A DNA stretch of 64,000 nt from assembly GCA_016203225.1 (NCBI GenBank), contig JACQNC010000014.1:25653-89652 (forward strand), read 5' to 3'. The stretch is from Candidatus Woesearchaeota archaeon (GTDB taxonomy: Archaea > Nanobdellota > Nanobdellia > Woesearchaeales > ARS49). Positions within the stretch are counted from its first letter, which is position 1. Each line of letters opens with the position of its first letter. The notes beneath the pieces were generated by a model that had not been told where the DNA came from, did no database searches, and saw nothing but the letters and a program-made list of their open reading frames with translations. Positions 12,498 through 58,691 of the stretch are shown one piece after another. The position numbers and the translations under genes were made by a program.

Positions 12498-13590
12498 CTG
12501 CTGCACCGCATCCGTTGAACGTCCCAGCACGTCGCACCCCAAGCAGGTTTGTCGCATTTCCATCGATTCCGATAATGCAAGAACGTCAATCGTGCCTGGG
12601 CACGTTCAGCAGGGGAAAGCTGACGGAGGGCGACAACTCCAAAGCGCGACATTCCTCGTCAAGTACGACTGCAACCTGAACTGCAAGTTCTGCCTGAACG
12701 ATTGGCGCGGGAAGAAGAGGCCGAATGACGAGTTGGCGTTCGAACAGCAGAAACAGGCGTTGCAGAAATTGAGGGACGCGGGCGTCCGGCACGTCACGTT
12801 CACGGGCGGCGAGCCGACATTGCATCCGCGCATCGCAGATCTCATCAGGCACGCGCATTCGCTCGGCATGACGACGCTGCTGCAGACGAACGGCACGAGG
12901 ATAACGGACGAATTCCTGCGCGCAGTTCAATCGTTCATCGGCGGCATCCAGGTATCGCTCGAGGGACTGCGCGACGAGCAGAAGGCGATCAGCCGCGTCG
13001 ACTGTTTCGACGGCATCGTCGCGAACATGAGGAAGATAAAACAGCACGGCATCAAACTTTTCACCAATTTCACGATCACCAAACTCAACAAGCACTGTCT
13101 GAAAGACTACCTCGCGCTGCTGGACGACATCGGCGTCGACGTCGCGAGCTTCACGCGACTCTATCCCGCAGGAAGAGCGATCGACAACTGGCAGGAACTG
13201 GTGATCTCTGGCGAGGAATACGCCGCGTTCTTGCGAGAGCTGAAGGAGATCGAGAAAACATCAAAAACAAGGATATACCTCGCAGGACCGACCGACACCG
13301 CGTTCCTGCTCGATAACGGTCTCGATTTCTCCGCGGCGACGTGCTCGGCAGGCAGGAACGAGATCGCCATCAACCCGAACGGAGACATCCTGCCGTGTCC
13401 GAGCTGGAACAAGCCGGTCGGAAATATAGTCAAGACGGACGTCAAAGCTGCCTGGGAGCAGGGTTTTCTCGCAGACCTCGGCGAACAGCATGACGGCACG
13501 CAGGGCTGCATGCTCGCGAGGGCCAGGAGCAAGACCGAACTCGAACCACCTGTTGTCGGTGAGCAAGCTTTAAAAGCAACCAGCCTCTGA
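12478..13590 (+). CDS. Radical SAM protein with SPASM/twitch domain (PqqE/SkfB-like)
   Basis: CNLNCKFC, FTGGEP, QTNG, CSAG...INPNGDILPC; true start uncertain (12478 or GTG 12592). Confidence 0.88.
   Translation: MLPLLTSCCTASVERPSTSHPKQVCRISIDSDNARTSIVPGHVQQGKADGGRQLQSATFLVKYDCNLNCKFCLNDWRGKKRPNDELAFEQQKQALQKLRDAGVRHVTFTGGEPTLHPRIADLIRHAHSLGMTTLLQTNGTRITDEFLRAVQSFIGGIQVSLEGLRDEQKAISRVDCFDGIVANMRKIKQHGIKLFTNFTITKLNKHCLKDYLALLDDIGVDVASFTRLYPAGRAIDNWQELVISGEEYAAFLRELKEIEKTSKTRIYLAGPTDTAFLLDNGLDFSAATCSAGRNEIAINPNGDILPCPSWNKPVGNIVKTDVKAAWEQGFLADLGEQHDGTQGCMLARARSKTELEPPVVGEQALKATSL
12538..12600. repeat. Palindromic element copy A (63 bp, internally shortened)
   Basis: CCCAAGCAGGTTTG...ACGTCAATCGTGCCTGGG. 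Confidence 0.8.
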
Positions 13591-13598
13591 TTTCGCCC

Positions 13599-14030
13599 AT
13601 GGAAGTCTGGACCATCGGTCACTCCACGCGGCAATTCGACACTTTCGTCGAAATCCTCCGCAAACACCGCATCGAGACGGTCGTCGACGTGCGCCACTTC
13701 GCGACGAGCATGCGCATGCCGTGGTTCAAGAAGGAATACCTCCAGCTGATGCTGCCGAAGTACCGCATCAACTACGTCCACGTGCCGGAGCTCGGCGGCT
13801 ACCGCAAAGGCGGATTCGCGCCGCACATGAAGACGAAGGACTTCGCGCTCGGCATGCAGCGCCTCGTCGACACCGCGCTATCCTCGCGGGCGGCCATCAT
13901 GTGCTCGGAAAGCGTGTTCTCCCGCTGCCATCGCAGATACCTCGCGGACCACCTCGCCCAGGACGGTTGGACGGTCAACCACATCTACGATGACAAACGC
14001 GTCGAGCGGCACGCGCTCACTTCACGTTGA
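13599..14030 (+). CDS. DUF488 family protein
   Basis: WTIGHS, VDVR, ELGG, IMCSE...CHR motifs. Confidence 0.9.
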   Translation: MEVWTIGHSTRQFDTFVEILRKHRIETVVDVRHFATSMRMPWFKKEYLQLMLPKYRINYVHVPELGGYRKGGFAPHMKTKDFALGMQRLVDTALSSRAAIMCSESVFSRCHRRYLADHLAQDGWTVNHIYDDKRVERHALTSR

Positions 14031-14778
14031 GCTCGAACTGCGTGCAGCCATCCGTCCGCGCGTTCTCGAGATCCTTACGCAACAGGATGAGCCTGCACGC
14101 GAGTTTGCCCAGCTCTCGTCGCGTGAGAGGTGTGAACTCGAGAAATTCATCGATTGACATCTGCCAGCCCGTCCGCACATATCTCAGTCTGAACTCCTTG
14201 ACAAGATATTCCCTGTTGGGCTCAAGATGGAGAGTTGTCCGGGCGTACGACTGACGTGTGAGTTCCTGCACGCGAGCATGGAACGCCTGCGTATGGCCCA
14301 TCACCTTGATGCTCGGCCGCGCCTTCGGGCTCGCACGCATATCCGCCAGGCGCAGCACCGAGGACTCAAGCTCGCTCCAGTAGTTCTTGATGGTCGCATC
14401 ATCCCGTGACGCGAGCTGTTCCACGACGTGGGTCGCCAACATCCCGACGTAGGTATTGATCAAGGCGTGGTTGAGGTCATTCGCGCCCGCAAGCGCGAGC
14501 ACAGGAATGCCCTTCTTCTCCGCGATCGAAGCAACCGACGCGAGATAGCGCATGCCATTCTCGGCTTCCTGCACGTTCCTGTACACCAACCCGTGCTCGA
14601 GCTCGAAGATGAACAGAAGCGGATCCTCACTGTTGAGAAAGTTGCGCGCATCACCCATCGGCTGCACCCACGCGCGATAATTCATGCGTTTCAAAAAATC
14701 GGTCCAGCGCACTTGGTTCTCCGCGTACGCGAAGACATCGGAGGTGCTGCCTTGTCTCGTCACGATGACGTCAAGCAT
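14017..14778 (-). CDS. Hypothetical protein (253 aa)
   Basis: Long ORF with host-like codon use, no recognisable motif. Confidence 0.6.
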   Translation of the reverse strand: MLDVIVTRQGSTSDVFAYAENQVRWTDFLKRMNYRAWVQPMGDARNFLNSEDPLLFIFELEHGLVYRNVQEAENGMRYLASVASIAEKKGIPVLALAGANDLNHALINTYVGMLATHVVEQLASRDDATIKNYWSELESSVLRLADMRASPKARPSIKVMGHTQAFHARVQELTRQSYARTTLHLEPNREYLVKEFRLRYVRTGWQMSIDEFLEFTPLTRRELGKLACRLILLRKDLENARTDGCTQFELNVK

Positions 14779-14869
14779 GCATCAGGGGAACAAGCACGGG
14801 TTTTTACGCTTTTCGCCGCATTTCCCACAAGCTTTAAAAAGCGCCCTCCGAACAGTCCGTACCGTTTTC

Positions 14870-14952
14870 GCGGAGGTAACGAAGCGGTCAAACGTGCCGG
14901 ATTCAGGATCCGGTGGCTTAGGCCTTCGCAGGTTCGAATCCTGCCCTCCGCA
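14870..14952 (+). tRNA. tRNA-Leu (anticodon CAG)
   Basis: GCGGAGG/CCTCCGC acceptor stem, CCGGA-TTCAGGA-TCCGG anticodon arm, long variable arm, GGTTCGAATCC T-arm, no encoded CCA; TTTAAAAA promoter at 14833. Confidence 0.95.
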
Positions 14953-17004: not shown

Positions 17005-17077
17005 CTTTCGGTGGACGATTGCGTTGACGCGTTAAAAAACTTGCTCCTAGCATACGTTGCAGTCCTGCGCTGTGCTC

Positions 17078-17148
17078 CCCAAGCACGATTGACGTGGCTC
17101 TATCGCAACCGATTCGAAAGCAGAAATGTAGCTGCCAACCTGCCTGGG
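17078..17148. repeat. Palindromic element copy B (71 bp)
   Basis: CCCAAGCACGATTGACGT...CCAACCTGCCTGGG. Confidence 0.88.
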
Positions 17149-17182
17149 GAGTAATGCGGGGAACGGGCCGAAGTGCGTATCC

Positions 17183-18130
17183 TTATTTCCTCAGCCAGGG
17201 GTATGCGAAGTACATGAAGACGAGGAAGTACGCGACGAAAAGCACCCAGCCGACGTTGGTGTGGAACAAGGAGAGCGCAAGCGCGGGGCTCACCCTGTCG
17301 CCGATGAGCATCAGGATGAAGACGCGGATGATGCTCATCAGGAACATGCCCACCAATCCGAGAGGGTACAAAAGCAGCAGCTTCCGCTTGTCGAGCTTGT
17401 TCCAGTCAAGTAAAGCGATGAAGAGGTACAACCCGGTGAACATTATGAGGCTCTCCACGCCGGAACAAGGCGCGCCGACGCGCGCCGAGAAATCCCCCAC
17501 AGTGAACAACGGATCAGTGCCCGGCTTGAACTCCATGGAGTAGGTCATGCCCAACACCCTGAAGAGGAGCGCGTCGGCCTGCATGATCGCGTTGGAGAAA
17601 TACATCCATGCGCCGTTCAGCATGAGCGAGAACGAGAAGTACGGCAGTGTCACGCTGAAAGCCAGCACGAGCTGCCTGAAGAACCGCTGGAAGAACTCCA
17701 GCTGGAAAACCGCGAGCGCCAGGAAGAAAAGCCCGAACGTGTACAACAATCCCGTGAACAGCAGATAATACGTCGGGAAGACGATGCCGAATTGGCCCTG
17801 GCCGTACCTGATGACGACGAACAATGAGAGCGTGAGCAGCGACAACCCTGTGAACGCTACCGCCTGCAGCCAGTTCCAGGAATACGCGATCCCCTGCAAA
17901 CGCTTCCGGTTGGCGAGCACGAAAACGCCGATCAGGATGAGCGAGAACGCCAACGGATAGATCGCGTTGACAGTGAACGCGGGATTCCGCTGTTTCGCGA
18001 GATACTGCACCAGCACGGGCACGAGCCCGTAGCCGAGACAGAGGAACAGCACCAGCCGCCATGAGAACGACCGCACGCCAGGACGCGCCCACCACTCCTT
18101 GAGCGCAGCCATCACCGACCTCTTTTGCAT
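17183..18130 (-). CDS. Exosortase/archaeosortase family transpeptidase
   Basis: Multi-TM protein with Cys (APCSGVES), Arg (IIRVF) and His (FHTNVG) triad. Confidence 0.88.
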   Translation of the reverse strand: MQKRSVMAALKEWWARPGVRSFSWRLVLFLCLGYGLVPVLVQYLAKQRNPAFTVNAIYPLAFSLILIGVFVLANRKRLQGIAYSWNWLQAVAFTGLSLLTLSLFVVIRYGQGQFGIVFPTYYLLFTGLLYTFGLFFLALAVFQLEFFQRFFRQLVLAFSVTLPYFSFSLMLNGAWMYFSNAIMQADALLFRVLGMTYSMEFKPGTDPLFTVGDFSARVGAPCSGVESLIMFTGLYLFIALLDWNKLDKRKLLLLYPLGLVGMFLMSIIRVFILMLIGDRVSPALALSLFHTNVGWVLFVAYFLVFMYFAYPWLRK

Positions 18131-18296
18131 GCCTGCGCAGAACGCTCCATTCTTTTTAAGCCTTTGCGAGACATCTCTCACAAACGCATTATATATGCAC
18201 CGCGCGAAAACTTTATAAACCGACTCGCTTCTGTCCATCACGCTGCTACTGTTGAACATTATCCCTTGAGGGGATGGTGAAAAAGGGGGGTTGTGA

Positions 18297-21200
18297 GTGG
18301 GTAAAGGGGGTGGGCTACAGTCCTATCGTTCAGCACCTTCTAGGCTTGCCTCTCGCTTCGACACGCTTTACGTGGCGGCCATGCGTTCTCCAGCAGCTGC
18401 GCGCAAGCAATATCCCGCACTCCTCGACCTTTACCAGAAACTCCTGGGTTCCGACGCCTCTATCGCGGTCAAGAGCTTCGCCTACCAGAAGACCAGCCAG
18501 GTCTACCGCCTCGCGCAATCCTCAGGGACGCATTTCGCAAGCCCTACCACGCCTTCCTGGATGATGCCCCTCTCCTTCATCGTCATCCTCCTCACGCTCA
18601 CGCTCTTTTTGAGACCAGGAATCACGGGATTCTTTGGAATCGAGACCCGATCTGTTTCTGAGGCACTTGCCCTCAGCAGCAGTAGCAGCTCCGGCGTCTT
18701 GACCCTCCAGGGAATCCCTGATTCCCTGGTTTTCGATGGCACGTGGAACGGCCAAGGCATCGGAAGGGTGTATGCGGTATTTGCTGATGGTCATCGACTA
18801 TTAGCCGCGGATACGACACTACTCCCGACCATGCCTGGGGCGACATTCCACTTCACCCAGACCTGCGTAGAAACGTGCGACAACCTCGACGCGCCCTCGA
18901 ACGTCGTGACAGTCGAGTTCGAGGTCTCGGACGGAGCCGAGATGCTCCTCGACCAGGTCACGTACACGACGAGCGAGAACAACCCGCCTGCGTGGGTCGG
19001 AACGACGAACACGTTCGAGATGACTGACACGCTCACGCTTGACCTCTCGACATTGTTCTTCGACCCGGATGGCGACACGCTCACGTTCCTCGCGACAGCG
19101 CCGGAGCTGCTGCAGGTACGCCTCGAAGGAAGCACGCTCACGCTCACGCCAGAGCCAGGATTCACCAGCGACACTGTCAGCGTAATCGCCTCGGACGGTA
19201 TCGCGATCAGCCAAGCGACGCTCATCATCACGAGGACGACCGTGGAGACTGCGCCGAGTATCACGCCGGTGTACGAGACATCGGAAACCGTCCAGGAGCC
19301 TGCGCTGTCGACAGCAGCGCCAACCCAGAACGTGACGACGACAGGCCTCCTGACGACGGACGGATTCAGCATCGCGACAGATGTGACCGCGTGCGGGACG
19401 CTCACGAACGCGAACAACACGCTGATAAACAACGTCACTGCTGCCACAGGCACGTGCTTTGTCATGAACTGCAACGACTGCTTCCTCGACTGCGCGGGCA
19501 ACACAGTCACGTACGGGAACACCACTTCAGTGGGCGCAGGCATAACCGCCGCGAGCAGGGCGAACATCACCATCAGGAACTGCAGATTCGCGCACGGCGG
19601 AGGCGGCAGCGCGGGCATCGTAGGCATCAACCTCACCAGCATCACCGCAGGCAGCATCCAGGACTCCCGCGTCACTGTGAACGGGACGACAGACAGCGAT
19701 GGTATCGCGTTGCTAGGCAACACCAGCCAGTTCACGATCTCGAACGTCACCACCGCGGTCACGATGACTGGATCAGGAACGCTCAACTCCAACGCCGTGC
19801 GCCTCGCCGGTGCGAGCGGTTCGGTCTTCGTAGATAGGGTCAACATCTCGAGCAGCACTCTCGGCATCACCGGCGTGCGCGGTCCGGTCAGCATCCTCAT
19901 GACGAACATCTCGAACGTCATCATGGACGGGAACGTCATCTCCGCGAACTCCACGAACACGGGCGGGAAAGGCATCGCCGCATCAGGCGTGCTCGTCTTC
20001 AACGTCACGGCGCGAAACAACACACTCGCACTATCCAGCACAGCCGCAGGCACCGATACGATCTTCCTGTCAGGTGTGGCGCATAAGATAATCAACAACA
20101 CGATAAACTCGAGCGCCGCCACGACAGGCATAACCGGCATCAGGTTCGGTTCCAATGCGTCGAACGCCTCCCAGAACCGCGTTTTCGTCAGCGGCTCGAA
20201 CCCCATAGGGCTGAAAGCTGACTCCAGCGTCAACGCCATCTTCGAGGACAACATGGTGACGATCCCGTCTTCTTCGGCAACCACAGGCTACGGTCTGTAT
20301 GCGGTCACGAGCGCCCTGAACACCACGTTCAGGCGCAACAACGTCACGTTCACCGGCTCGACCGCGAACACCCAGCTCATCCGCGTCGAGAGTCAGGCAA
20401 ACCTCACGTGGTTCGACTCGAACATCCTGACAGGCGACTCCACAGGCACCTCGAGCGGTGTTTACATCCAGAACAGCTACGGGATGAGATTCACGGGCAA
20501 CGTGTTCAGGAACGTGTTCCGCTGGATGGGGCAGGAGAACGTCAGCGGATTCCCCTCAGTGACCGCCAACTACACCGGCAACCAGTTCACCACGGATTTC
20601 GGTTCGATCAACATCACACCGCGAGTCCAGCTCAACGGCACGTTCAACGTCACGCAGGCGCACCTGAACGTCACGCTGAACCGGTCATACGTCAACGCGA
20701 CAAACCTCACGTTCTTCAACACCAGCGCGTTCATCACACTCAATCTCTCCGCTCTGAGCATCGTGAACCCCAAGCCGATGCTCGACTCAGCCGACACCGG
20801 CGCGTTCGTCACTTGCCCCGCGTCGAAATGCACCGAGCAGAGCTTCACGAACTCGATGTTCGTCTTCAATGTCAGCTCGTGGACGACGTTCGCGGCGGCC
20901 GAAACAGGCAACTCCGCTCCCACAATCTCATCAGTGATACTCAACACGACGAACACCTCGACGAACAACACGAACCAGAACCTCACGCTGTACCTGAACG
21001 GTGTCGCCGATGTCGACAACGATTCCGTCCAGAACATCACGGACTGGCGTCTGTGGAACGGTTCGACATTCAAGTCCCTCGCGACGTTGAACATGCCTTT
21101 CGAGACCAACCTGAGCGCAACGACAACAAGGGCCGTGAGCGACTACAGCACGTCCAAGAACAACGGCACGCTCGGCGGCGGCACCGCGAGCGCGGTGCCG

Positions 21201-24200
21201 TCATGGATAACCACCGGCCGCGTCGGGGGTGCGTACAAGTTCGACGGCATCAACGACTACATCGACGTGCCCGACAACGAGAGCCTTGACATGTCGAGCA
21301 TCACGATCTCCGCATGGATAAATACCACCACGAGCGGAGTGAACAACATGATCGTGACGCGCGACACGAACTCTGGCGCGGGCACGCGCATCTTCCAGTT
21401 CCGCATAAACGCCGCGAACAAGGTAGACTGCATCCTGTTCATAGGCGGCAGCGCAGACACGAACAATATCGGTCTCACCTCCGTGAACGACGGTTCATGG
21501 CACCACGTCGCATGCACCTACAACCAGGCCACGGGTTCTGTCCGCGTTTATTTCGACGGCCTTCCCGAGTACAACGAGACCCAAGCGGCCACCGCATTGG
21601 ATTCAGGCACCATCGGTTATTACATCGGCAAGTTCGAGGATGGTGGCGGGCCCGTCATGTACACAGGCATGATCGACGAGGTCCAGGTGTTCAACAGACC
21701 CCTCTCGCAGCAGCAGATCTATCAGATGTATCTCGAGGGCAACCAAGGCAGGCACGTCAGGACCATGCACGCGAACGAGACTGAGCTGAATGATATCTGG
21801 CGGGTCGCGGTGACCCCGAACGACGATGTCGAGGACGGCGCGACGACATCGAGCAACAATGTGACGATCCTGCAGACCCTGAACGAGGCGCCGAGCATCA
21901 GCCAGGTCATACTCAACACGACGAATCCCTCCGCGAACAGCAGCCAGCAGGACCTCACCGGATTCATCATCGGCGTCTCCGATGCAGAGGGCGACCCTGT
22001 CCAGAACATCACCGACTGGCGCGTCAACGGCAGCAGCCTCGCGGCGCTCAACCTTCCTTTCGAGACCAACACGAGCAACCTCACGAACAGGTCCATCCGA
22101 GACTACAGCACGTTCAAGAACAACGCGTCCCTAGGCGGCGGCGCGTCCGCGAACGCTCCTGCCTGGAACAGGACCGGCATCCGCGGCGGTTCTTATCGGT
22201 TCGACGGCACAAACGACTTCATAATCGTGCACCAGAACGAAAGCCTCGACTTCACGCAGCAGTACACGCTCGAGGCATGGGTCAACATAACGGCGCACAA
22301 GAACTACAACGTCCTCTTCACGCGCGGCGTCGGCGAGGCCGACGACATCGAATGGTACTACACGTCCACGCCGCAGTTCACCATCGTCCACAACCGCGGC
22401 AACGGCGGCACCACTGCCGTGATCCAGCAGACTGTAGCGTCACCGACAGCGGGGCAGTGGACGTATGTCGCGGTGACTTACAGGAACGGCACGCTGCGCT
22501 ACTTCCTAAACGGAGCGGAAGTCGCTTTGACCAGCGCGACAAACGTCCAGGCTCCCCTTGACACCAACAGGGACTGGAAGATCGGAGCGACGGCCCACAG
22601 CGCCTTCGGCGGCACTGGATTCTTCCAGGGACAGATGGACGAAGTGCGGTTCTACAACCGTTCCCTCTCGCCCGAACAGATACGACAGAACTATGCCGAG
22701 AGCAACGCATCGCGCGGCTTGAAACCTGTGCTGCTGCACAACGAACTCGGCATCGGGCAGAACTGGACGCTCGCGGTCACGCCCAACGATAATCAGCCAA
22801 ACACAGATGGAACGACCGTGCTGAGCAACAGCGTCCTGCTGACCTCGGGAATCCCGAGCATCACTAGCGTGACGCTGAACACGACGAACCCCGCGACAAA
22901 CAGCACGAGCACCAACCTCACAGTATACGTCACGGGCGCGAGCGACCCAGACGGAGATCCTGTCCAGAACATCACCGATTGGAGGACGCATAACGGCACA
23001 GCATTCAACAGCATCGCGATCCTGTACATGCCGTTCGAGACCAACACCAGCAACCTCGCGAACACGGTGGTCAAGGACTACTCGACCTACCAGAACAACG
23101 GGACCACCGGACAGAGCGCATTGACCCAGATCCCCGCTTGGACGAGCTCTGGCAAGGTCGGTGGCGCGTACCGGTTCGACGGCAGCAATGACAGGATAAA
23201 CATCACCGACAGCGCGAGCATCACGACCGCGCTCGCGCGCTCCACAACGTTCGAGGCGTGGGTGAACGTCAACGCTTCTACCGGCGCAGGCCAGGTCATA
23301 GTGGGCCAGGGAGACAGCCAGGCGGCTGCCGAGAACACGTTCCTGCGATTGCAGCTTTCGTCAACGCTCGTTCCTCAGCTCACGCACCGCACATCCGGAG
23401 ACGCATCGACGCAGACCGTGTCAGCCACTGGCGCAATAGCGCCGAACCAATGGTACCACATCGCGGGCGTGCGCGTAGCGGGCAGCGAGCTACGCATCTA
23501 CGTAAACGGCGCGCTCAACGCGACAGCAGCCGGCGATAACGGCAACACGTTCTCCTCATCGCGGTCGTTGGGCATCGGGGTCGATATGGAGATCGACGGC
23601 ACAGACGCGTCTGCGTTCTTCAATGGCACCATCGACGAGGTCAGGATATACAACCGTACGCTCACCACAGACCAGATCCGCGCGGACTTCGAGCGCGGGC
23701 AAACAGGCATTCCGATGACGATGATCGTGCACAACGAGACGACTGCCGGCGACATCTGGCAGGTCGCCGTGACCCCCAATGACAACCGGCAGAACACGGA
23801 CGGAACGACCTTGTTCAGCAACATCACTATCCTCTCGAACGTCGCGCCGAGCATCAGCCAGGTCATACTCAACTCGACGAACCCTGTGACGAACAACACG
23901 AACCAGAATCTCACGGCGTACGTCATCGGCGCATCGGATGCCGATGGTGACGCCGTGCGCAACATCACCAACTGGAGGAGGAACGGGACATCCATCGCAG
24001 TCTGGCACTTGGCGTTCGAAAGCAACATCAGCAGCACGTCCGCGGGCCTTATCCGCGATTATGGCACGCATTCCAACAACGCGACGCTTGGCGCTGGCAG
24101 TTCGACAAACGCGCCGACCTGGAACTTGTCAGGACGGGTGGGCGGGGCCTACATCTACGATGGGGTGAACGACTACATCCAAAGCGCGACCAACGGCCTG

Positions 24201-35131: not shown

Positions 35132-35144
35132 AGGAGGCGAACGA

Positions 35145-47017: not shown

Positions 47018-47130
47018 AAGATCACATTTCAACTCATCACGTGATTCCTGTCCTTTTCCCTTCGTCGGAGGCGACCGAAAAGCATATAAACGACCCGGCA
47101 GCGCGTTTTCCCGAGAAAGGAGGTCAACCT

Positions 47131-47325
47131 ATGCCCAAAGTCAAGGCAGATATCCCTGCATTGCAGGAAGATGAAGACGACGTCTCGAAGGAGGATTACG
47201 AGGACAAGGACGACGTCAAAGCGGTCATCCCGGATGACGACGACACGGACGACGACGATGTCGAGGATGGCGAGGACACAGAGCAGGACGCCGCCGGCGC
47301 AATCGACATCGGCGACGATCTATAA
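47131..47325 (+). CDS. Small highly acidic protein (64 aa)
   Basis: AGGAGG RBS, TATAAA promoter, T-rich tract downstream; D/E-dominated sequence. Confidence 0.7.
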   Translation: MPKVKADIPALQEDEDDVSKEDYEDKDDVKAVIPDDDDTDDDDVEDGEDTEQDAAGAIDIGDDL

Positions 47326-47424
47326 TATCTTTTTCAATATATATTTTCTAGTCATCTAGTAACCACTCTCGAATAGAAAAACTTTATATAGTTCTCGCAT
47401 CGTCCGTGTTGCTGGGGGTAGTGA

Positions 47425-49872: not shown

Positions 49873-52800
49873 ACCTCAAATTGGTGCTGAGCGCAGTCCT
49901 GTTCCTCGCGAGCGTCAGCGCCATCGCCGCCATCGACATCGCCCCATCGCTCTCCTTCACGAGCGACACCACCAACACGTCAAGCACGGCGACGCTCACC
50001 GCAGTCGCGGTCGACCCCGACACGTCGCCCACCACGCCCGACATCGTCGGCATCACTATCTATAAGGACGGCGCGCCCGACGCTTCCAGCACGTGCGACG
50101 GCGCCTCAAGCACATGCGTACTTGTCGACGTCGAATACGAGCCCAGCGCGGGCGTGCACTCGTACTACGCGACAGCCACCGACGACGAAGGCAACACCGC
50201 CACGAGCGACGGCATAGTCATAACGTTCACAGGCACCAACGCGCCGCCGAACATCTCAGGCATCCCTGACGTGAACATCTCGGAGGATTCAGGCTACAAT
50301 CCGAGCCTGGTCAATCTGTGGACATACGCCTCAGACTTCGAGGATTCCGACAGCGAGCTCGTATTCACGATCCTCAACGAGAGCAACACCACCGTCGTCG
50401 ACTGCTCAATAACATCAGGACAGTTCGTCGACTGCAGCACCGTCACAGGCAACGCCACCGGCTCCAGCCTGGTCTTCGTCCAGGTCTCTGACGGGGAAGC
50501 GACAGACGTCGACGACTTCACGGTCACGGTCACGCCAGTGAACGACCCAGTAGTCGCGAACCTAAGCGTCATTCTCTCCAACCTCACCATCCCAGAGGAC
50601 GGCAACGGCACCATCGACCTCGTAGGAGCGTTCTCCGACGTAGACAACGCCACATTCATCTATACAGCATCAGATAGCCCTGACCTCGTAAACGTGACGT
50701 TCGCAGGAACGGTCTCCACGGTCCAGGGACTTTTCAACCTGAACGGCAACACGACGCTCACGTTCACGGCAAGCGACGGCGCTTTCTCTGCGAACCGAAG
50801 TGTCATCGTGAGTATCACGCCGGTCAACGACGCGCCCGCATGGATGACGATCCCGAACCAGACCTGGCCAGAGGACACGAACCTGACGCTGAACCTGAGC
50901 CTGTTCTCGAGCGACGTCGACAGCCCTGACCTGAACTGGACCGTGTCAGGCAACGTATTGATCAACATAACCATCGACAACGCATCCGGTCTCGCGAAAT
51001 TCGTCCCTGCTGCGGACTTCTTCGGCAGCGAGACTGTCACGTTCACCGCGACAGATGGCCTGCTCCCGACCGCGAGCAACGCCGTCGTATTGAACGTCAC
51101 GAACGTCAACGACGCGCCAGTGTTCAACGCCTCTGCGCCGCTGGCGAACCTCACGCTCCTCGAGGACGTCCTCAACCAGTCGCTCGACCTCTCGATATCA
51201 TTCTTCGACATCGACGGCCCAGACATCAACTGGACCGCGAACGCCACCGGACCTCTGACAGTCGCCATCAACCAGCTCACAGGCATAGTGAACATCACGT
51301 CGACGGCCAACGCGAGCGGCAACGGCACGATTGTATTCACAGCCACAGACGGCAACCTGACCTCGAACGCGAGCAACACGGTCTTCGTCACGGTCCTGCC
51401 CGTGAACGACGCGCCGACGCTCGTCACCGCGATCCCGAACATCACGTTCGCGGAAGAGAGCTCCTTCACGACAAACGTCACTCCGAACTTCTTCGACGTG
51501 GACAACGCGACCTTGAACTACAGCGTCGCATCCGACAACCCGAGCATCACCGCAACGATGCTGCCCGGCGGCATCCTCAACGTCTCTGCGCTCGCGGACT
51601 TCTTCGGCAGCGGAAACCTGACAGTGACCGCGACCGACGGAACGTTGATCGCGACCAGCAACCTGATCGTCACAGTGGTCACGGGCGTCAACGACGCGCC
51701 CGTCCTAAGCGTGCCGCTCGCCAACACCACATTCGCTGAAGAATCGAGCATCATAGTGAACCTCGCCAGCTTCTTCACCGACATCGACAACACGACGCTC
51801 GTCTTCACCGCCAGCTTCAACTCGAGCCAAGTCAACGTCTCGGTCAACGGCACGAACACGACCGTGACAGGCGTCCTCAACTACTTCGGGCCAGCGCCCG
51901 TCACGTACACCGCATCCGATGGCGCCTTGAGCGCGAACGGCACGGCGTTCTACACGATAACTAACGTCAACGACGCCCCGATCTACAGCCCCGCGCTCGC
52001 GAACCAATCCGCGAACGCCAACCTCTCATTCCTCTACGACATCAACGGACTCGACATCGACGGCGACGCGTTCACGTTCAACGACAACGCGACACAATTC
52101 GCGATCGGCAACGCGACAGGCATCATCTCGTTCACACCGACCACAGTCGAGACCATCTCTGTAGAGGTGAACGTCTGCGATGCAGTCGTATGCACGCCGG
52201 GCTTCTTCACCATCACTGTGGGCCCGCCCGTCAGCTTAATCCTCAACAGCACGTTCAACAGCACGCTCTTCAACGGCACGTTCACGAACTTCACGGGCGT
52301 TTCGGTAAGCACCGTGAACAACAGCGCGGTCTCCGTCGACTGGCAGATCAACAACTCCAACGTACAGAAGAGCACGGTAACCAACACGTTCGTCGTCAAC
52401 ACGAACAGCACGAACAGCACGCTGGTCAACAGCTCGTTGACGGACTGCACGGTCATCAATTCGCTGGTCAAGAACTACGTAGGAGCGTCTTGCTTCATCT
52501 CGGACTCGGTCGTCGACCCGCCAGGCGGCACCAACAACGTCACGGGCAGCACCATCGTGGGCGGCAGCACGGTCCTCGAGAGCGACGTACTGTTCAGCTT
52601 CGTGAACGGCTCGCGGATCGTGAACTCTACGAAGATCAATAGCACTATCGCGTCCAGCAACGTCACCGCGAGCAACAACACCAACACCACGCTCACATCT
52701 AGCACGGAGACGAACTCGGTCACGAGCGACAGCACGATCGCGTCCAGCACGGTAATCAACGACACGATCATCTCGAGCACGATCACCACTAGCACGATAA

Positions 52801-53564
52801 CGAACTCGAACGTGACGCTCTCTACGATAACGAACAGCACGATGAACCTCGTAAGCGTCTTCGACGCCACGATCGCGAGCGGCGTCATCTCAGCCGGGAC
52901 AATCACGTCCAACGGAACAACGTACAACGCGACAGCGTCCGGACCAGCCAACCTGACGGACCTGATCAACTACGCGCCGGTATCGAGCTTCACGCCCACG
53001 AGCCCCAGCGTGACGCTTGGCAGCATCATAACATTCACCAGCACGAGCACCGACCTGAACATCCCTGGCTCGTTGAACGACACGTTGACGTTCCTCTGGA
53101 CGTTCGGTGACAGCACGACAGCGAACACGTCCAGCGTCAACAAGACCTATGGAAGCGCAGGAACGTTCACGGTCACCTTGACTGTCACGGACAACTTCGG
53201 CGCGTCCAGCACCTCGACAGGCACGGCCAGCATAGCCTCAGCAGGCGGCGGAGGGGGCGGTGGCGGAGGCGGCGGAGGCGGCGGAAGCTCTTCGTCAGGC
53301 AGCAGCAGCAGCGGCGGCGCACCTCCTTTCAACGTGACAGTGTTCACTCCGTTGGCATTCCCCGAGACAGAGGACGAGCCCGAAACGAGCGAGCCCGTCG
53401 AGCCAAAGGTCGAACCGAAGCCTGAACCCAAGCCCTCGACTCCGACAGCAGCAGTCGTCGGCGCGGACCTTGACGCAGACCTCGGGATCGGCTTCACGAT
53501 CATCCTAGGCATCCTGCTCTTCGGACTGACAGGCTACTTCGTGGTTAGACAGATTTTGTTCTGA
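49869..53564 (+). CDS. Adhesin with cadherin-like (VNDAP) repeats, Ser/Thr beta-solenoid, PKD domain and C-terminal TM
   Basis: Repeated VNDAP / F(F/S)DVD units, SxIxxS pentapeptides, WTFGD PKD motif. Confidence 0.85.
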   Translation: MNLKLVLSAVLFLASVSAIAAIDIAPSLSFTSDTTNTSSTATLTAVAVDPDTSPTTPDIVGITIYKDGAPDASSTCDGASSTCVLVDVEYEPSAGVHSYYATATDDEGNTATSDGIVITFTGTNAPPNISGIPDVNISEDSGYNPSLVNLWTYASDFEDSDSELVFTILNESNTTVVDCSITSGQFVDCSTVTGNATGSSLVFVQVSDGEATDVDDFTVTVTPVNDPVVANLSVILSNLTIPEDGNGTIDLVGAFSDVDNATFIYTASDSPDLVNVTFAGTVSTVQGLFNLNGNTTLTFTASDGAFSANRSVIVSITPVNDAPAWMTIPNQTWPEDTNLTLNLSLFSSDVDSPDLNWTVSGNVLINITIDNASGLAKFVPAADFFGSETVTFTATDGLLPTASNAVVLNVTNVNDAPVFNASAPLANLTLLEDVLNQSLDLSISFFDIDGPDINWTANATGPLTVAINQLTGIVNITSTANASGNGTIVFTATDGNLTSNASNTVFVTVLPVNDAPTLVTAIPNITFAEESSFTTNVTPNFFDVDNATLNYSVASDNPSITATMLPGGILNVSALADFFGSGNLTVTATDGTLIATSNLIVTVVTGVNDAPVLSVPLANTTFAEESSIIVNLASFFTDIDNTTLVFTASFNSSQVNVSVNGTNTTVTGVLNYFGPAPVTYTASDGALSANGTAFYTITNVNDAPIYSPALANQSANANLSFLYDINGLDIDGDAFTFNDNATQFAIGNATGIISFTPTTVETISVEVNVCDAVVCTPGFFTITVGPPVSLILNSTFNSTLFNGTFTNFTGVSVSTVNNSAVSVDWQINNSNVQKSTVTNTFVVNTNSTNSTLVNSSLTDCTVINSLVKNYVGASCFISDSVVDPPGGTNNVTGSTIVGGSTVLESDVLFSFVNGSRIVNSTKINSTIASSNVTASNNTNTTLTSSTETNSVTSDSTIASSTVINDTIISSTITTSTITNSNVTLSTITNSTMNLVSVFDATIASGVISAGTITSNGTTYNATASGPANLTDLINYAPVSSFTPTSPSVTLGSIITFTSTSTDLNIPGSLNDTLTFLWTFGDSTTANTSSVNKTYGSAGTFTVTLTVTDNFGASSTSTGTASIASAGGGGGGGGGGGGGGSSSSGSSSSGGAPPFNVTVFTPLAFPETEDEPETSEPVEPKVEPKPEPKPSTPTAAVVGADLDADLGIGFTIILGILLFGLTGYFVVRQILF

Positions 53565-53573
53565 GGCAGGCTC

Positions 53574-53966
53574 ATGGATTTATCTCAGCTTGAGACCGCA
53601 TTGAGGCAGGCTTGGGCGCGCGAGACCAGCGCTGATCCTGACAGCTGGACCATTGAAAATCCGGCTTGGGGACAATGCGCGGTCACTGCGCTCGTCGTCA
53701 ATGATCATCTTGGCGGAAAACTCATTTGGGCGCCCGCAAAGCTTCCGGATGGCCGGGAAGTCTCGCACTATTTCAATGAGTTGCCGAACGGGGTTGTAGA
53801 TCTCACAAAGGTGCAATTTCCGCCAGGAACCTTGCTGCCTCCCGGTATCGAAAAGAAAAAGGACAAGATGTCCACGCGTGAATACGTTCTATCATTTCCT
53901 GCCACGCAGACGCGCTATCTGCTATTGAAACAGAGAGTGTTTGCCGTGATGCCAAAGACAGATTAG
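53574..53966 (+). CDS. YunG-like protein
   Basis: NPAWGQCAVTAL...HYFN...DLT..QF. Confidence 0.8.
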   Translation: MDLSQLETALRQAWARETSADPDSWTIENPAWGQCAVTALVVNDHLGGKLIWAPAKLPDGREVSHYFNELPNGVVDLTKVQFPPGTLLPPGIEKKKDKMSTREYVLSFPATQTRYLLLKQRVFAVMPKTD

Positions 53967-54518
53967 CTAAGCGGACAACGCGTCCTTTTCTTTGATCAAC
54001 GCCAGTTGCGCAGGCTTCCAGTCGCCGCGCTCCATGTGCGCTTCGACATTGTTCGGCACGTAGACTCCATACAGGTGCCCGCTGTTGCGGCCAACCATCA
54101 CGCGACCGTTGCCTTTCGACCCGCCCCAATAGAACAGCTTGAGCGGCACGGGGGCATAAACGCCTGATACGTATGAGAGACGCTGTATCGCTGCGCATAT
54201 GTCTGCCACGCCCTCGCCGAGCAACGGTACCGCCTGCGTCGCAAGCGCTGCGACGTCCTGGAGGGACTCCATAACGAAGTCCTCCGTGATCTTTCCAACC
54301 AGCGGGTCGTCGTGCGTGACCTTCTTGCGGTCGATATCGATCCAAGTGTTCAGAAGCAACGACTGCGATGTAAGGTTATCTGCCGAAGCCAGATCTCCCG
54401 CGTCGATGAGCGCGCGCAGGTACGCGAACCACGTCGGGGCTGACGGAGTGAACTTCTCTCCGCGATTGACCGAGCCCGAGATATGGTAAGAACGTGAAGC
54501 GATCTTGATGGCGCTCAT
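53967..54518 (-). CDS. Hypothetical protein (183 aa)
   Basis: ORF abutting the convergent gene; TAAATA upstream. Confidence 0.55.
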   Translation of the reverse strand: MSAIKIASRSYHISGSVNRGEKFTPSAPTWFAYLRALIDAGDLASADNLTSQSLLLNTWIDIDRKKVTHDDPLVGKITEDFVMESLQDVAALATQAVPLLGEGVADICAAIQRLSYVSGVYAPVPLKLFYWGGSKGNGRVMVGRNSGHLYGVYVPNNVEAHMERGDWKPAQLALIKEKDALSA

Positions 54519-54570
54519 CAAGGAGTGACACAGACGATGGCCGGTATTTATTGATTTAGCGGGTGGAAAA

Positions 54571-54978
54571 TCACAATCCCAACAACTGGTCCAACTCCCT
54601 GGCCGCGCGCCTGATGTCGTCCATCGTGCGCTCGGTGTCCTTGCGGAGCTCCTCGATCAACAGCTCCAGGTTGTTATCGCGCAGCCAGTAGAACCTGCCG
54701 TCGTACAGCACTAGCCCGTACTCTATCAGTTTGTTCAGGTGGTGCACGACAGTTCCTCTAGAGAGCTCGAGCGCCTCCGCCAATTCATCAGAACTCATCG
54801 GGCGGTTGACTTTCGCGGCTTTGAGAAGTTCGATGAATACGCGGAACATCGAGCGATCCTTGTCACGCAGCCCGAACAAACCCAGAGACGAGCCGAACCA
54901 CTGCAGTTCCTCGTTCAACGAAGGGCGAGGCGGCTTGCGCATCGTCACGATAGTGATGCGCCGTTGGATGAATGCCAT
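54571..54978 (-). CDS. Winged-helix (ArsR/TrmB-like) regulator
   Basis: SSDELAEALELSRGTVVHHLNKL HTH. Confidence 0.85.
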   Translation of the reverse strand: MAFIQRRITIVTMRKPPRPSLNEELQWFGSSLGLFGLRDKDRSMFRVFIELLKAAKVNRPMSSDELAEALELSRGTVVHHLNKLIEYGLVLYDGRFYWLRDNNLELLIEELRKDTERTMDDIRRAARELDQLLGL

Positions 54979-54980
54979 AG

Positions 54981-55334
54981 TCACCCGAGATATGTCGGGG
55001 TCTCCTTGGTCTCTTCGCCTTGCGTCGCCAGAAGATCCTTCTGTTTCTTCTCCGCCTTGATGAGCGCCTTCGGCTTCACGATCTTGCCGTATTCCTCCTC
55101 GTACTTCTTCACCGTGGCTTCAAGGACCTCGATTATCTTCTTCGCGTGCCACGGATCCACCATGACGACGTTGTGCTGCATCAGGAACGTAGGGCGGCCC
55201 TTGCCGCGCGGGTCGACGCGCGGCGTGATCATCTTGAAGTCGAAGAACACCTGCGTCGCGCTGAAGTTCGCGCTCATCTCGTGCGCGTACATCGCGCCGC
55301 CATCGTTGATGGTCATGTTGACTGGTTCTGCCAT
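54981..55334 (-). CDS. Conserved hypothetical protein (DUF3467-like)
   Basis: YAHE...FFDF...VVMVDPWHAK...YEEEYGKI pattern. Confidence 0.7.
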   Translation of the reverse strand: MAEPVNMTINDGGAMYAHEMSANFSATQVFFDFKMITPRVDPRGKGRPTFLMQHNVVMVDPWHAKKIIEVLEATVKKYEEEYGKIVKPKALIKAEKKQKDLLATQGEETKETPTYLG

Positions 55335-55382
55335 GGTTAGTCACCTTTGGTTGTTGATCATGTCTCGTCCCCTGCTGTTCTG

Positions 55383-55450
55383 CCCAAGCAGTTTTGAGGC
55401 TTTACGGCTATCGATGCGATCTCGATGAAGCCAATTCTAATCTGCCTGGG
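55383..55450. repeat. Palindromic element copy H (68 bp)
   Basis: CCCAAGCAGTTTTG...CTAATCTGCCTGGG. Confidence 0.8.
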
Positions 55451-55480
55451 AACGCAAAGATTTGGAGCGACAGCGGGACG

Positions 55481-56017
55481 TCATTCCTCTCCTTTCAGCA
55501 TCTTCTTGAGCTTCTCCTTGTCGGGAACCAGTTCGTGCAGTTGCCCGCCTGGGATCGTGCTGCTGAACTTCAGCCGTTGCGCCCATTGGCGCACGCTCTC
55601 TGCGTCGTTGACGTCCACGAAATAGTTCAGGTCGAACCATTCGTTCAGCTGCTCGCCGTGCTGGTTCCAACTGGACAGCCTGCACCCGGTCGGCTTGACC
55701 TCGTGGATGGTGCAGCCGTCCTTGCCAAGGAACGTGCAAGGTCCGTACGGCTGTTTCAGCATCTTCGGCCGCGAATGGGTGGTATTATACTTGGTGATCG
55801 GGTCGAAATACTTGTCCTTCAACTCGGCTTCTGTGATACCGAGATGGTGCGCGATGCGTTTCAGGTCTTCCGGCAACGTCGTTCCTGTTCCGTACTCGCA
55901 GCATTTCGTGCACTTATGCGATCTGCACGGCGTGTCCGCCAGTTCTTCCACTACGTTCAATGGCGTGGACTTTGTGATGTGTGCCGCCTCTTTTGGGACT
56001 TCCCTGCACGGGATCAT
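55481..56017 (-). CDS. YkgJ-family cysteine-cluster protein
   Basis: CxxxxCxxCC, CTFL...CTIH..KPxxCR. Confidence 0.85.
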   Translation of the reverse strand: MIPCREVPKEAAHITKSTPLNVVEELADTPCRSHKCTKCCEYGTGTTLPEDLKRIAHHLGITEAELKDKYFDPITKYNTTHSRPKMLKQPYGPCTFLGKDGCTIHEVKPTGCRLSSWNQHGEQLNEWFDLNYFVDVNDAESVRQWAQRLKFSSTIPGGQLHELVPDKEKLKKMLKGEE

Positions 56018-56132
56018 GGCGATGTCCTTGATGCCTAACTATAAAAATGTTTCCTTTTCGAGCACAACATTTAAATATAAGTTCAGTCTCATGCCATTCC
56101 TGTTGATGTGAAGTCAACGAGAATGGTGGGTA

Positions 56133-56663
56133 ATGGGAGAGCAAAAACCGACTAAACAAGAGCAAACCGCGCCTTCGATAGAGTCATTGAAGAAAGAACT
56201 TGACCACAAATCGAAGGAAGCTACGGATTACCTGGACCACCTCAAGCGACTGCAGGCTGACTTCGAGAACTTCATCAAGCGCAGCGAGAAAGACAAGCAG
56301 GCCTTCGTAGAATTCGCGAACGCCCGCTTGATAATGAAGTTCCTGGTCTTGCTTGATGAGCTCGAACAAGGGCTTGATTCGCTCACGAAACAAAACGTGC
56401 CAGGCGAACACGTGCGCGGGCTCTCCTTGATAGTCAAGAAATTCCATGCAATCCTCTCGGACGAGGGCGTGCGGCCGATCGAGAGCGTCGGCAAGCACGC
56501 GGACCCGTACCTGCACGAAGTCATGCTCGCGGAGCAGAAAGACGGCGTCGAAGACGGAATCATACTCGAAGAGCTCCAGAAGGGCTACCGCATGAAGGAC
56601 AAAGTCCTGCGGTACGCGAAAGTCAAGGTAGTGAAGAATCCTGGCAAAAGCCAGGGAGGCTAA
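56133..56663 (+). CDS. grpE: Nucleotide exchange factor GrpE
   Basis: [19 protein letters not shown]...VLR.AKV. Confidence 0.95.
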
Positions 56664-56665
56664 CA

Positions 56666-58516
56666 ATGGCAAAGATCATAGGAATAGACCTGGGGACATC
56701 GAACAGCGCAGCGGCTGTCCTCGAAGCAGGCAGACCTAAAATCATCCCTTCAGCAGAAGGAGCATCGCTGTACGGCAAGGCGTTCCCGAGCGTCGTCGGA
56801 TTCCAGAAGGACGGAACGGTGCTAGTCGGCGAGCCCGCAAGACGACAAGCGGTCTCGAACCCCGAAGGCACGGTCATGGCCGCGAAGCGCAAGATGGGCA
56901 CCAACTTCAAGTACAAGATATTCGGCAAAGACCACACTCCGCAACAGATCTCCGCATTGATCCTCCAGAAGATAAAGCGCGACGCAGAAGCATTCCTGGG
57001 CGAGCCCGTACACAAGGCGGTCATCACCGTCCCTGCGTATTTCGACGACAACCAACGCCAGGCCACGAAGGACGCGGGCACGATCGCGGGACTCGAAGTC
57101 ATCCGCATCGTGAACGAACCAACCGCGGCAGCGTTGGCGTACGGTCTCGACAAGGGCAGCAAGCAACAGACGATCCTCGTTTTCGACTTCGGCGGCGGCA
57201 CGCTCGACGTCACCATCATGGAGTTCGGCGACGGCGTGTTCGAAGTGAAGTCCACATCCGGCGATACCCAACTAGGCGGAACCGACATGGACAACCTGCT
57301 GATCCAGCACATCGCCAAGAAATTCAAGGAAGACACCGGAATCGATCTCGAAGACGATGACACTGCCATGCAGCGCGTGCGCGAAGCAGCCGAGAAGGCC
57401 AAGATAGAGCTCTCGACCACTTTGCAGACCGAGATCAACCTGCCGTTCATCTCGGCCACGCAGAAAGGTCCGAAGCACCTGCAGATGACGATGACGCGCG
57501 CGCAGTTGGAATCGCTCGTCGACCCGCTCGTCAAGCGGTGCAAGAAAAGCGTCGACCAGGCATTGTCTGACGCGAAGCTCGACGGCCACAAGATCGGCAA
57601 AGTCATCCTCGTCGGAGGCCCGACCCGAATGCCGCTCGTTCAGAAGTATGTCGAGGAATGGTTCGGAAAGGGCAAGGTCGAACGAAGCATCGACCCGATG
57701 GAATGCGTCGCGATAGGCGCATCAATCCAGGCAGGCGTGCTCGCTGGCGACGTCAAGGACGTGCTGTTGCTCGACGTCACGCCTTTGTCTCTGGGCATCG
57801 AGACGCTCGGAGGCGTGTTCACCAAGCTGATCGATCGCAACACGACGATCCCTGTGAAGCGCTCGCAGACCTTCTCGACTGCGGCAGACAACCAGCCTGC
57901 CGTCACGATCAGGATCGCGCAGGGCGAACGACCCATGTTCGGCGACAACAAGCTCTTGGGACAGTTCGACCTCGTGGGCATCCCGCCCGCGCCCCGCGGC
58001 GTGCCGCAGGTCGAGGTCACGTTCGACATCGACGCAAACGGCATCATGCACGTGACAGCGAAAGACCTCGGGACTTCGAAGGAGCAGTCGATGAAGATCA
58101 CCGCTCCGCACAAGCTCAACGAAGCGGAAGTCGAACGCATGCGCAAGGAAGCCGAACAGTTCGCTGAAGCCGACAAGCGCAAGAAGGACGAAGTCGAGAC
58201 AGTGAACAACGCGGACACCTTGGTGTACGCCACCGAGAAGACGATGAAGGACCTCGAAGGCAAAGTGCCAGAAGCGGATGTCAAAGCGGTGAAAGACGCG
58301 GCTGCCGGCTTGAAGAAGCTGCTCGAGGTAAAGGAGAAAGACCTTGCCTTGATCAAGAAGGCGACCGATGAGTTGCAGCAGCTGGTGCAGAAGGCATCGA
58401 CAGAGCTGTACCAGAAGGCCGTAAAGCATCCTGCTGGCGCGCACGAGCACAAGGACGAAGGCCCCGAAGTCGTCGACGCGGAATTCCAGGAAAAAGGCAA
58501 GAAGGGAAAAGCGTAA
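56666..58516 (+). CDS. dnaK: Chaperone DnaK (Hsp70)
   Basis: [27 protein letters not shown] motifs. Confidence 0.98.
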
Positions 58517-58551
58517 ACCAAGTCCCCGGCTGTGAGCCCTCGCAGATCGTG

Positions 58552-58622
58552 CCCAAGCAGGCTGGTAGTAGCATTACCGCTTTTGAATCAATTGCGATGA
58601 AGCAACTTCAAACCTGCCGGGG
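58552..58622. repeat. Palindromic element copy I (71 bp)
   Basis: CCCAAGCAGGCTGGTAGT...TCAAACCTGCCGGGG. Confidence 0.88.
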
Positions 58623-58691
58623 AGATCACGCTTGGGATTGCAATGGACCTGGCAGTAAAGCTATTAAAGCGAAAAGAAACGGACAACCTGT

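Follow-up and report, generated by a model that had tools for sequence, protein, structure and literature searches.

The window analysed here, a stretch of 64,000 nucleotides from contig JACQNC010000014.1 of a Candidatus Woesearchaeota archaeon (positions 25653-89652 of C7, one of the 15 contigs of the 1,000,058 bp assembly designated G000), contains nine copies of an imperfect palindrome, most of them with a 71-nt core. These copies are probably old, genus-restricted, non-autonomous extragenic palindromic repeats, an archaeal counterpart of the bacterial repetitive extragenic palindromic (REP) sequences, bacterial interspersed mosaic elements (BIMEs) and REP doublets forming hairpins (REPINs), likely to have been spread by a hairpin-recognising enzyme that leaves no target-site duplication and now largely decaying. 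In almost every descriptive respect (placement, mosaic design, heterotypic arms, species-specific families, variable occupancy and links with rearrangements) they match REP/BIME/REPIN repeats as well as palindromes resembling MITEs (miniature transposable elements with inverted repeats), yet the defining tests failed, as no REP-associated tyrosine transposase (RAYT), no duplication, no autonomous partner and no integron context were found; for this reason they are read as an archaeal variant of such repeats.

All nine copies listed in a first-pass annotation of the window were recovered in place, and extraction at the listed starts returned cores of 71 nt in seven cases, of 63 nt at 12538 and of 68 nt at 55383, as that annotation had described. 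A repeat search grouped the copies in the window into D2 (seven copies of 88 nt) and D16 (six copies of 50 nt), together with inverted pairs I1-I5 of 71-78 nt with 72-78% complementarity. An nhmmer profile built from the nine copies, the genome scan proposed at first pass, found exactly the same nine loci in the window and 90 loci across the whole G000 genome at E < 1e-3; since the profile counts some split copies twice, the total is about 85-90, corresponding to approximately 90 copies per Mb, 1% of the genome and 6% of its intergenic DNA. The family is non-coding. Rfam identified only a tRNA-Leu in the window at gathering thresholds and only two tRNAs at E ≤ 0.1 over 41 kb holding several copies, so that no Rfam family matches the palindrome, and the 35 ORFs (open reading frames) of the window yielded no transposase by Pfam, in keeping with the dispersed non-autonomous family first proposed. 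Archaeal housekeeping proteins are encoded in the window (L15e, an ATP-dependent DNA ligase, a Rad50-like ATPase, GrpE/DnaK/DnaJ and an Lhr helicase), and the closest relatives of the ligase in public genomes belong to metagenome-assembled genomes (MAGs) titled Candidatus Woesearchaeota or Nanoarchaeia, which together identify the host as a DPANN archaeon, as had been supposed from the letters alone. Four public sequencing runs contain the dnaK-region stretch, all of them DNA and all from one groundwater study.

The repeat unit, a nested imperfect palindrome, measures about 105 nt (135 nt in occasional copies) and is built of an outer arm, an 8-nt spacer and the 71-nt core. Placed in one orientation, 51 strong copies give a near gap-free alignment of the core, which is exactly 71 nt long in 46 of 57 strong copies. 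Per-position conservation peaks in the terminal 14 nt, that is, in the left arm CCCAAGCAGGTTTG and its inverted partner; most positions of these arms reach a conservation of 90% or more, and the arms also occur in the congener G003, so that the earlier impression of conserved length and ends with a drifting interior extends to the family at large. For the right arm there are two linked variants: 22 of the 51 copies have CAATCGTGC and 28 have CAAACCTGC. Inside one arm GTAG occupies alignment columns 34-37 in 35 of 51 copies, and inside the other CGTC occupies columns 75-78 in 27, the two tags, which as tetranucleotides have a low information content, being found together in 21. Outside the core, a 7-mer resembling the first seven bases of the arm and then one of a few 8-nt spacers lead towards it from both sides, with a further 10-nt flank module in some copies, the same flanking modules recurring among copies. 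The modules of the whole unit are interchangeable, namely the outer arm, the spacer, the 14-nt inner arm, the GTAG-type and CGTC-type tetranucleotides and the variable interior. The looser CCCC..GC and GC..GGGG outer arms noted at first pass are real: intergenic DNA has about six times the genic density of the 7-mer GC[CT][TG]GGG, and in 35 cases neighbouring occurrences on the same strand are spaced 14-16 nt apart. The tandem pair formed by copies 4 and 5 has a start-to-start distance of 102 nt.

The placement of the copies is narrowly defined. Against crude gene calls (longest ORFs scored by codon usage; 986 genes, 86% coding), 82 of the 90 loci lie wholly between called ORFs, although intergenic DNA makes up only 14% of the genome; of the remaining eight, six overlap only the first ~100 nt of ORFs called with their longest possible starts and two overlap weak ORF calls. 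The occupied spacers, about 9% of all intergenic spacers, separate tandem genes in 63 cases, convergent genes in ten and divergent genes in 15, and two are at contig ends. The median stop-to-core distance is 32 nt (interquartile range 24-40; 63 gene ends with a copy within 130 nt), and with some 25 nt taken up by the outer arm and spacer the unit starts a few bases past the stop codon, which generalizes the position downstream of stop codons first seen in the window. Both orientations relative to the upstream gene are used, as also noted at first pass, and almost equally (21:24, n = 45, with weak calls where copies are near-symmetric). No target-site duplication was detected, again as first reported, when 2-8-mers were compared at 45 × 45 boundary offsets over 57 copies, the best 4-mer recurring in 3 of 57. 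The spread over contigs is uneven, with 24 copies observed against 9.6 expected on C11 and one against 9.1 on C5. Replacement of oligo-T terminators by the copies was considered and rejected, T5 occurring within 80 nt after 8% of copy-bearing and 10-16% of copy-free genes; insertion into pre-existing small GC hairpins was likewise rejected, as the genome has only three arms-only palindromes and most empty sites lack one.

Several lines of evidence bear on the age and distribution of the family. The 46 cores of exact length display a mean pairwise identity of 72% (range 58-87%, plus one outlier pair), which indicates that the family is old, and a mean identity to the consensus of 80%. The outlier, at 98.6%, is formed by the copies at 45869 and 46947 that bracket a Bro-N domain gene, and is the sole pair above 90%. 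Searched with a covariance model of the unit, 41 related genomes (the relatives are MAGs of 74-98% completeness) yielded matches in three, all of one genus: G000, G003 (75 matches over both strands, weaker) and G006 (five); the model found nothing in four other congeners, in 18 other genera of the family or in 16 other families. A gapped pattern of the two inner arms matched G000 60 times; in a sample of 300 further genomes of the order, spanning 217 genera and including G233, G231 and G135, which are flagged as unpublished, it matched 0-4 times per genome. On the strength of these sequence searches, the family is confined to one genus. An exact 20-mer of the G000 left arm occurred in no viral contig and in one metagenome contig, with a chance-like 9-bit match. 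Within the genus, G003 copies keep the arms around a different and shorter interior, with 63-nt cores. G002 has its own version, missed by the covariance model, with an outer-arm 12-mer that occurs 92 times (controls 1 + 1), often as inverted pairs 70-76 nt apart, and that is found in none of G003, G005 and G006 and once in G001; two of its copies, at sites orthologous to G000 copies, carry inner motifs common to the G000 type. Three congeners thus each have a species-specific version, or 'dialect'.

Gene order is conserved in the genus, at a DNA identity of 65-83%, and orthologous sites can be compared directly. The site of copy 8 (55383) is empty in G006, where 16 nt separate the stop from the next start, and consists of 60 AT-rich nucleotides in G005, of fragments in G001 and, in G002, of its own, different palindrome. 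On the other hand, G003 carries own-type copies with 63-nt cores at two sites, 3' of dnaK (58552) and 3' of the gene for L15e (45869), and six of the top seven G003/G006 model matches lie where G000 also has a copy. This picture is corrected by a larger, less biased sample: of 32 G003 copies from 28 stretches, 30 of which had a mappable flank, eight have a G000 copy nearby and 22 have none, and six of these 22 unshared sites that were inspected are clean empty sites in G000. Empty orthologous sites, for which the first-pass annotation had suggested a search, therefore exist, occupancy varies strongly from species to species, and such differences in presence and absence between congeners are as expected of mobile DNA. 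The occurrence of each species' own type at shared sites implies either that the same spacers were hit repeatedly or that resident copies were replaced in place.

The palindromy itself appears to be inherited from the family consensus rather than repaired by compensatory change. In the 51-copy alignment, full palindromic pairing leaves 69.7% of cells paired, compared with 30-45% in slid controls, but shuffling arms between copies yields 72.1 ± 0.5%, with 500 of 500 shuffles at or above the real value, and the covariation score is 0.098 for the real arms against 0.126 for shuffled arms; compensatory covariation, which was to be looked for as a mark of function, is thus not found. If anything, heterotypic (imperfect) arm pairs are preferred, as in REP heterodimers (PMC3733652): the variants at columns 25 and 87 are associated in a non-complementary way, 19 copies having A and C, 17 having G and T, two A and T, and ten G and C (Fisher p = 2.5e-4). 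Mismatches of the G-U and A-C types are balanced (123 versus 101), so that neither strand is favoured, and the consensus strand chosen is the more stable fold in 52 of 69 copies. Fold z-scores range from -0.14 to -5.5 for RNA (eight folds) and from -0.03 to -4.7 for DNA (six folds) and are unremarkable in many copies; RNAalifold returned no structure for a 69-copy MAFFT alignment and only the ten outermost pairs for the nine window copies. Where the core folds, it does so as one long hairpin, and the halves were not seen to fold alone.

The search for a mobilising enzyme covered six Pfam recombinase/transposase families in G000, of which two are present. A Y1_Tnp domain (PF01797, E = 2e-39) at C2:540-896, followed by a 387-residue tnpB-like ORF with a zinc ribbon, constitutes an IS200/IS605 element (C2:390-2170) with GC-rich hairpins at both ends, located on a 7-kb contig devoid of palindrome copies; it is the only transposase detected in the assembly with these families. 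Its end hairpins, compared by eye with the palindrome and with the smaller element nested in some copies, resemble neither. PF01797 was found in none of G003, G006, G002 and G005, and a RAYT flanked by repeats in none of five congeners examined. The single tyrosine recombinase (437 residues), encoded 5 kb upstream of the window, immediately follows a pair of tRNA genes, of which the one of 129 nt presumably bears an intron; the recombinase gene stands at the edge of a G000-specific island, about 10 kb being absent at the orthologous place in G003, and was not detected in G003 or G006. The region C7:19300-30700, which reaches window positions 1-5020, looks like an integrated element with its far end inside the window start. 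Neither the IS200/IS605 tnpA nor the tRNA-adjacent integrase is associated with palindrome termini, and the genes between close copies are housekeeping genes or unknowns, none transposase-like, so that the HUH (RAYT/TnpA) or recombinase gene flanked by copies that had been proposed for search was not found.

Relative to congeners, three arrangements of copy, insert and copy were identified, the inserts being a Bro-N gene, an Orc1/Cdc6-like gene and a pilus operon of 10 kb. The two copies on either side of the Bro-N gene (46006-46839) are 98% identical, and their duplication takes in a 17-nt module located upstream, with one indel; G003 and G005 both lack a Bro-N gene in the interval from the L15e gene to the one that follows, and G003 has one own-type copy there. 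Copies at C11:11513 and C11:13388 flank the Orc1/Cdc6-like gene, the corresponding place in G003 consisting of 11 nt with no copy, and the type IV pilus-like operon lies between copies at C11:80347 and C11:90234, where in G003 a single copy joins the flanks. Public contigs over window positions 38750-58700 break at both 98% copies and contain repeat-induced joints, and are uninformative on empty alleles. Bro-N homologues were observed on five G001 contigs (C20, C39, C60, C55 and C101), and the Bro-N region (window 46076-46741) has an approximately tenfold excess of depth in public runs; this gene family seems either to exist in several copies or to occur also in other members of the community, for instance viruses.

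Some copies are themselves interrupted. Seven palindrome copies on six contigs were aligned that contain a nested element, which is about 52 nt long and has two small hairpins. Six of them have it at one and the same point of the host palindrome, whereas in the C4 copy it lies elsewhere, in the left arm. Its copies are 90-100% identical while the host palindromes diverge as usual, which indicates that the nested element is recent and palindrome-specific; it also explains the split profile hits of the nhmmer search. It may be flanked by a TA duplication and looks like a recently active mini-element that targets the palindrome.

Taken as archaeal relatives of REP/BIME/REPIN repeats, the palindromes would formerly have multiplied through an intermediate able to form a hairpin, either single-stranded or cruciform, that was copied out and inserted by a putative trans-acting enzyme of the HUH/Y1-like or recombinase type rather than of the DDE type, a preference that derives from the absence of duplications. 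The only insertions to survive would be those in the short stretch from a stop codon to the following promoter, and most copies, being only about 80% identical to the consensus, would now be decaying relics. The dispersed homologous hairpins may still bracket gene insertions and rearrangements and would offer a specific landing site to the second, recently active mini-element, and read-through transcripts would carry a 3' hairpin in either orientation, with a putative effect on the mRNA. Several results weigh against this account. Sites are shared more often than the roughly 9% due to chance: the less biased sample has 8 of 30 and the overall count is 13 of 35 (p = 5.6e-6 for the overall count, which includes five non-randomly chosen sites). 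Species-own types at such sites would need hot-spot targeting or replacement in situ, and would be explained by a host function too. The terminal 14 nt are kept between species with 20-30% gene divergence, which may mean constraint and not recent common origin. No recent spread of the main family is indicated apart from the local 45869/46947 duplication, there being no near-identical dispersed copies. No mobilising enzyme was identified in the searches described, the IS200/IS605 Y1 gene being on the copy-free C2 only, and DDE_3, DDE_Tnp_1, rve and IS110 were all absent from G000.

Much of the same evidence would be accommodated if the palindromes were host cis-elements, kept by selection 3' of certain genes either as binding sites of a dimeric or multimeric DNA- or RNA-binding host protein or as 3'-end hairpins that end or stabilize transcripts, and co-evolving with their factor into species versions. 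The tight placement a few nucleotides past stops, a sequence conserved without covariation (as fits recognition of sequence and not of structure), the iteration of the 7-mer at 14-16 nt in dyad symmetry, the arms conserved between G000 and G003 and the enrichment of shared orthologous sites, with dnaK and L15e genes carrying each species' own version, all point in that direction. Such a function is nevertheless possible rather than likely, as only ~9% of intergenic spacers carry a copy, none is detectable in G005 and in most of the family and order, 22 of 30 G003 sites are unoccupied in G000, and the copies have decayed to ~80% of the consensus and are spread unevenly over contigs. Moreover, oligo-T tracts were judged to be no rarer 3' of copy-bearing genes, many copies form hairpins of ordinary stability (z from -0.03 to -5.5 over 14 folds), and the fast replacement of a whole consensus between congeners is typical of selfish repeats and not of factor-binding sites.

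The three inserts bracketed by two copies, the Bro-N pair being 98% identical, could instead reflect recombination docking sites of the integron attC or att type, at which a recombinase inserts or excises gene cassettes to leave a copy-gene-copy arrangement; an imperfect palindrome with conserved ends, conserved mismatches and a variable interior would suit such a role, as would its being the exact target of a second small element. The copies are, however, scattered in random orientation and without arrays among housekeeping genes that are syntenic in congeners, the sole tyrosine recombinase is an ordinary tRNA-adjacent integrase that neither G003 nor G006 was found to have, the attC core motifs appear by eye to be unmatched, and homologous recombination between dispersed repeats explains the brackets equally well, making docking sites very unlikely. 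Of the two possibilities left side by side at first pass, dispersal and variable occupancy favour the non-autonomous element, while the three copy-insert-copy cases and the palindrome-targeting element are circumstantial for a structure-specific recombination site. It is extremely unlikely that the copies are structured non-coding RNA genes or strand-specific regulatory hairpins: the consensus strand folds better in most copies and some folds lie far beyond shuffled sequences (z = -5.5), but covariation is lacking, G-U and A-C mismatches are balanced, orientation to transcription is random, Rfam gives no match even at E 0.1, and the family has about 90 copies of low identity. A bolder and distinctly unlikely extension of the REPIN-like reading would make the palindromes archaeal, RAYT-less 'resident replicators', inherited vertically in a DPANN genus, renewed in place by a putative hairpin-specific enzyme and doubling as docking sites for genes (Bro-N, Orc1/Cdc6-like, pilus operon) and for the mini-element; if true, they would provide a cassette-exchange platform in genomes that are nearly free of transposases.

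Table 1. Palindrome copies of the window, the bracketed Bro-N gene and copies of the nested ~52-nt element. Positions are those of the window unless a G000 contig is named; copies are given with outer arms.
Feature	Position	Strand	Core	nhmmer score (bits)	Context
Copy 1	12516-12619 (C7:38168-38271)	+	12538-12600, 63 nt, short interior	65.4	Core 40 nt past stop of AAA ATPase gene 11358-12497
Copy 2	17055-17169	-	17078-17148, 71 nt	86.8	34 nt from stop of exosortase-like gene 17183-18259(-)
Copy 3	33396-33506	-	33414-33484, 71 nt	93.5	~99 nt past stop of 5005-aa ORF 18297-33314; top covariance-model match (97.7 bits)
Copy 4	38788-38892	+	38805-38875	88.8	First member of tandem pair; 29 nt past stop at 38775
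Copy 5	38889-38999	+	38907-38977	88.0	Second member of tandem pair
Copy 6	45846-45959	-	45869-45939	99.5	3' of ribosomal protein L15e gene; left bracket of Bro-N insert
Bro-N domain gene	46006-46839	+			Between copies 6 and 7; Pfam PF02498, E 1.6e-12
Copy 7	46929-47032	-	46947-47017	93.6	Right bracket of Bro-N insert
Copy 8	55361-55472	+	55383-55450, 68 nt	79.9	29 nt from stop of gene 55481-56017(-)
Copy 9	58534-58645	+	58552-58622	90.6	35 nt past dnaK stop
Nested element	C7:19455-19530				
Nested element	C7:115062-115121				
Nested element	C14:76534-76604				
Nested element	C8:53357-53423				
Nested element	C13:61969-62033				
Nested element	C9:32683-32743				
Nested element	C4:61222-61271				

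Further observations concern the surroundings of the copies. The ORF upstream of copy 3 (18297-33314) is a single frame of 5005 codons with many internal repeats of ~1 kb (families D1 and D5-D20) and Asn/Thr-rich short repeats, and its product is probably a giant surface protein. At C11:17405-17510, two half-copies stand inside-out, the right half before the left half, whereas a single intact copy occupies this place in G003; the site may have been rearranged or truncated twice. Another short structured repeat, found at C11:7009-7070, C11:7180-7275 and C13:3866-3901, substitutes the left arm of two adjacent palindrome copies; it matches at least six G003 contigs at 81-89% identity, above most coding DNA between G000 and G003, and has no Rfam match. 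On G002:C1 (~960 kb) the 12-mer is also unevenly distributed, with 60 occurrences in 0-470 kb, three in 470-710 kb and 27 in 710-960 kb (chi-square p = 9e-6), and the copy-poor G000 contig C5 maps to the poor zone. This nearly copy-free contig contains a lineage-specific island of ~10 kb (C5:40797-51050), the flanks of which are adjacent in G002, G003 and G006.

DPANN archaea have streamlined genomes of ~1 Mb, which are thought to be poor in mobile DNA, and to our knowledge REP and REPIN systems have so far been treated as bacterial. A full-text literature search found no description of this palindrome family. A census of prokaryotic MITEs, in the part consulted, does mention 'a Woesearchaea genome' with 105 MITEs per Mb, among the highest values in archaea (PMC11602168), which suggests that a high repeat load in this group is not wholly new; the description of the element as undescribed thus stands in that neither a published account nor an Rfam match was found, and is tempered by a MITE-rich Woesearchaea genome already on record (PMC11602168). 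The available text of the REP surveys that include archaea covers no DPANN genome (PMC12306157). An archaeal look-alike of REPs that lacks a RAYT makes one ask by which enzyme such hairpins are copied. The family also marks boundaries of gene gain and rearrangement and is the target of another mini-element, and in practical terms such repeats break short-read assemblies and may serve as strain markers for uncultured hosts.

Among MITE-like palindromes, Neisseria Correia elements, enterobacterial ERIC sequences and Rickettsia RPEs are imperfect palindromes of 100-150 nt, intergenic or co-transcribed, with terminal inverted repeats, presence/absence polymorphism and a tendency to form rearrangement hot spots; Correia and ERIC elements have TA duplications, and RPEs also insert in frame within genes. 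Terminal inverted repeats and insertion polymorphism were both encountered here. In contrast to Correia and ERIC elements, no duplication was found. No autonomous partner was identified among the six Pfam families searched, and in-frame insertion within genes, as in RPEs, was not seen. Integron attC sites, including those of archaeal integrons, are imperfect palindromes of 60-140 nt located just past stop codons, with conserved ends, conserved mismatches and a variable middle. The present palindromes differ from them in having no arrays, no uniform orientation and no adjacent integron integrase, and their inner arms, compared by eye, differ at one or more positions from the consensus of the attC R''/R' core sites.

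The REP elements of bacteria are the closer parallel in description. In the sections of the review drawn on here, REPs are short stem-loops (20-40 bp) tagged at one end by a conserved GTAG or CGTC tetranucleotide, extragenic and close to where the upstream ORF has its 3' end (Di Nocera et al., 2013; PMC3733652). The present family differs in its archaeal host, in consisting of one 71-nt palindrome within further arms instead of paired 20-40-bp stem-loops, in carrying both tags in the same unit and in the lack of a RAYT in the searches made. It resembles REPs and BIMEs, as characterized in the same sections, in its extragenic, high-copy occurrence just 3' of upstream ORFs in tandem and convergent spacers, in inverted halves of different types ('heterodimers') that can fold into one long hairpin, and in its mosaic flanking motifs, species-specific families and absence of duplication (PMC3733652); GTAG and CGTC also stand here, in 35 and 27 of 51 copies, at the inner arm boundaries. 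The REPIN-RAYT systems of Pseudomonas and enterobacteria are defined by a single-copy, repeat-flanked RAYT, which is missing in the five congeners examined, but in the outline of these systems taken from Bertels and Rainey they resemble the woesearchaeal repeats in that doublets about 100 nt long form hairpins, that copies number from tens to hundreds, and that lineage-specific sequence populations persist for long by vertical descent within a lineage.

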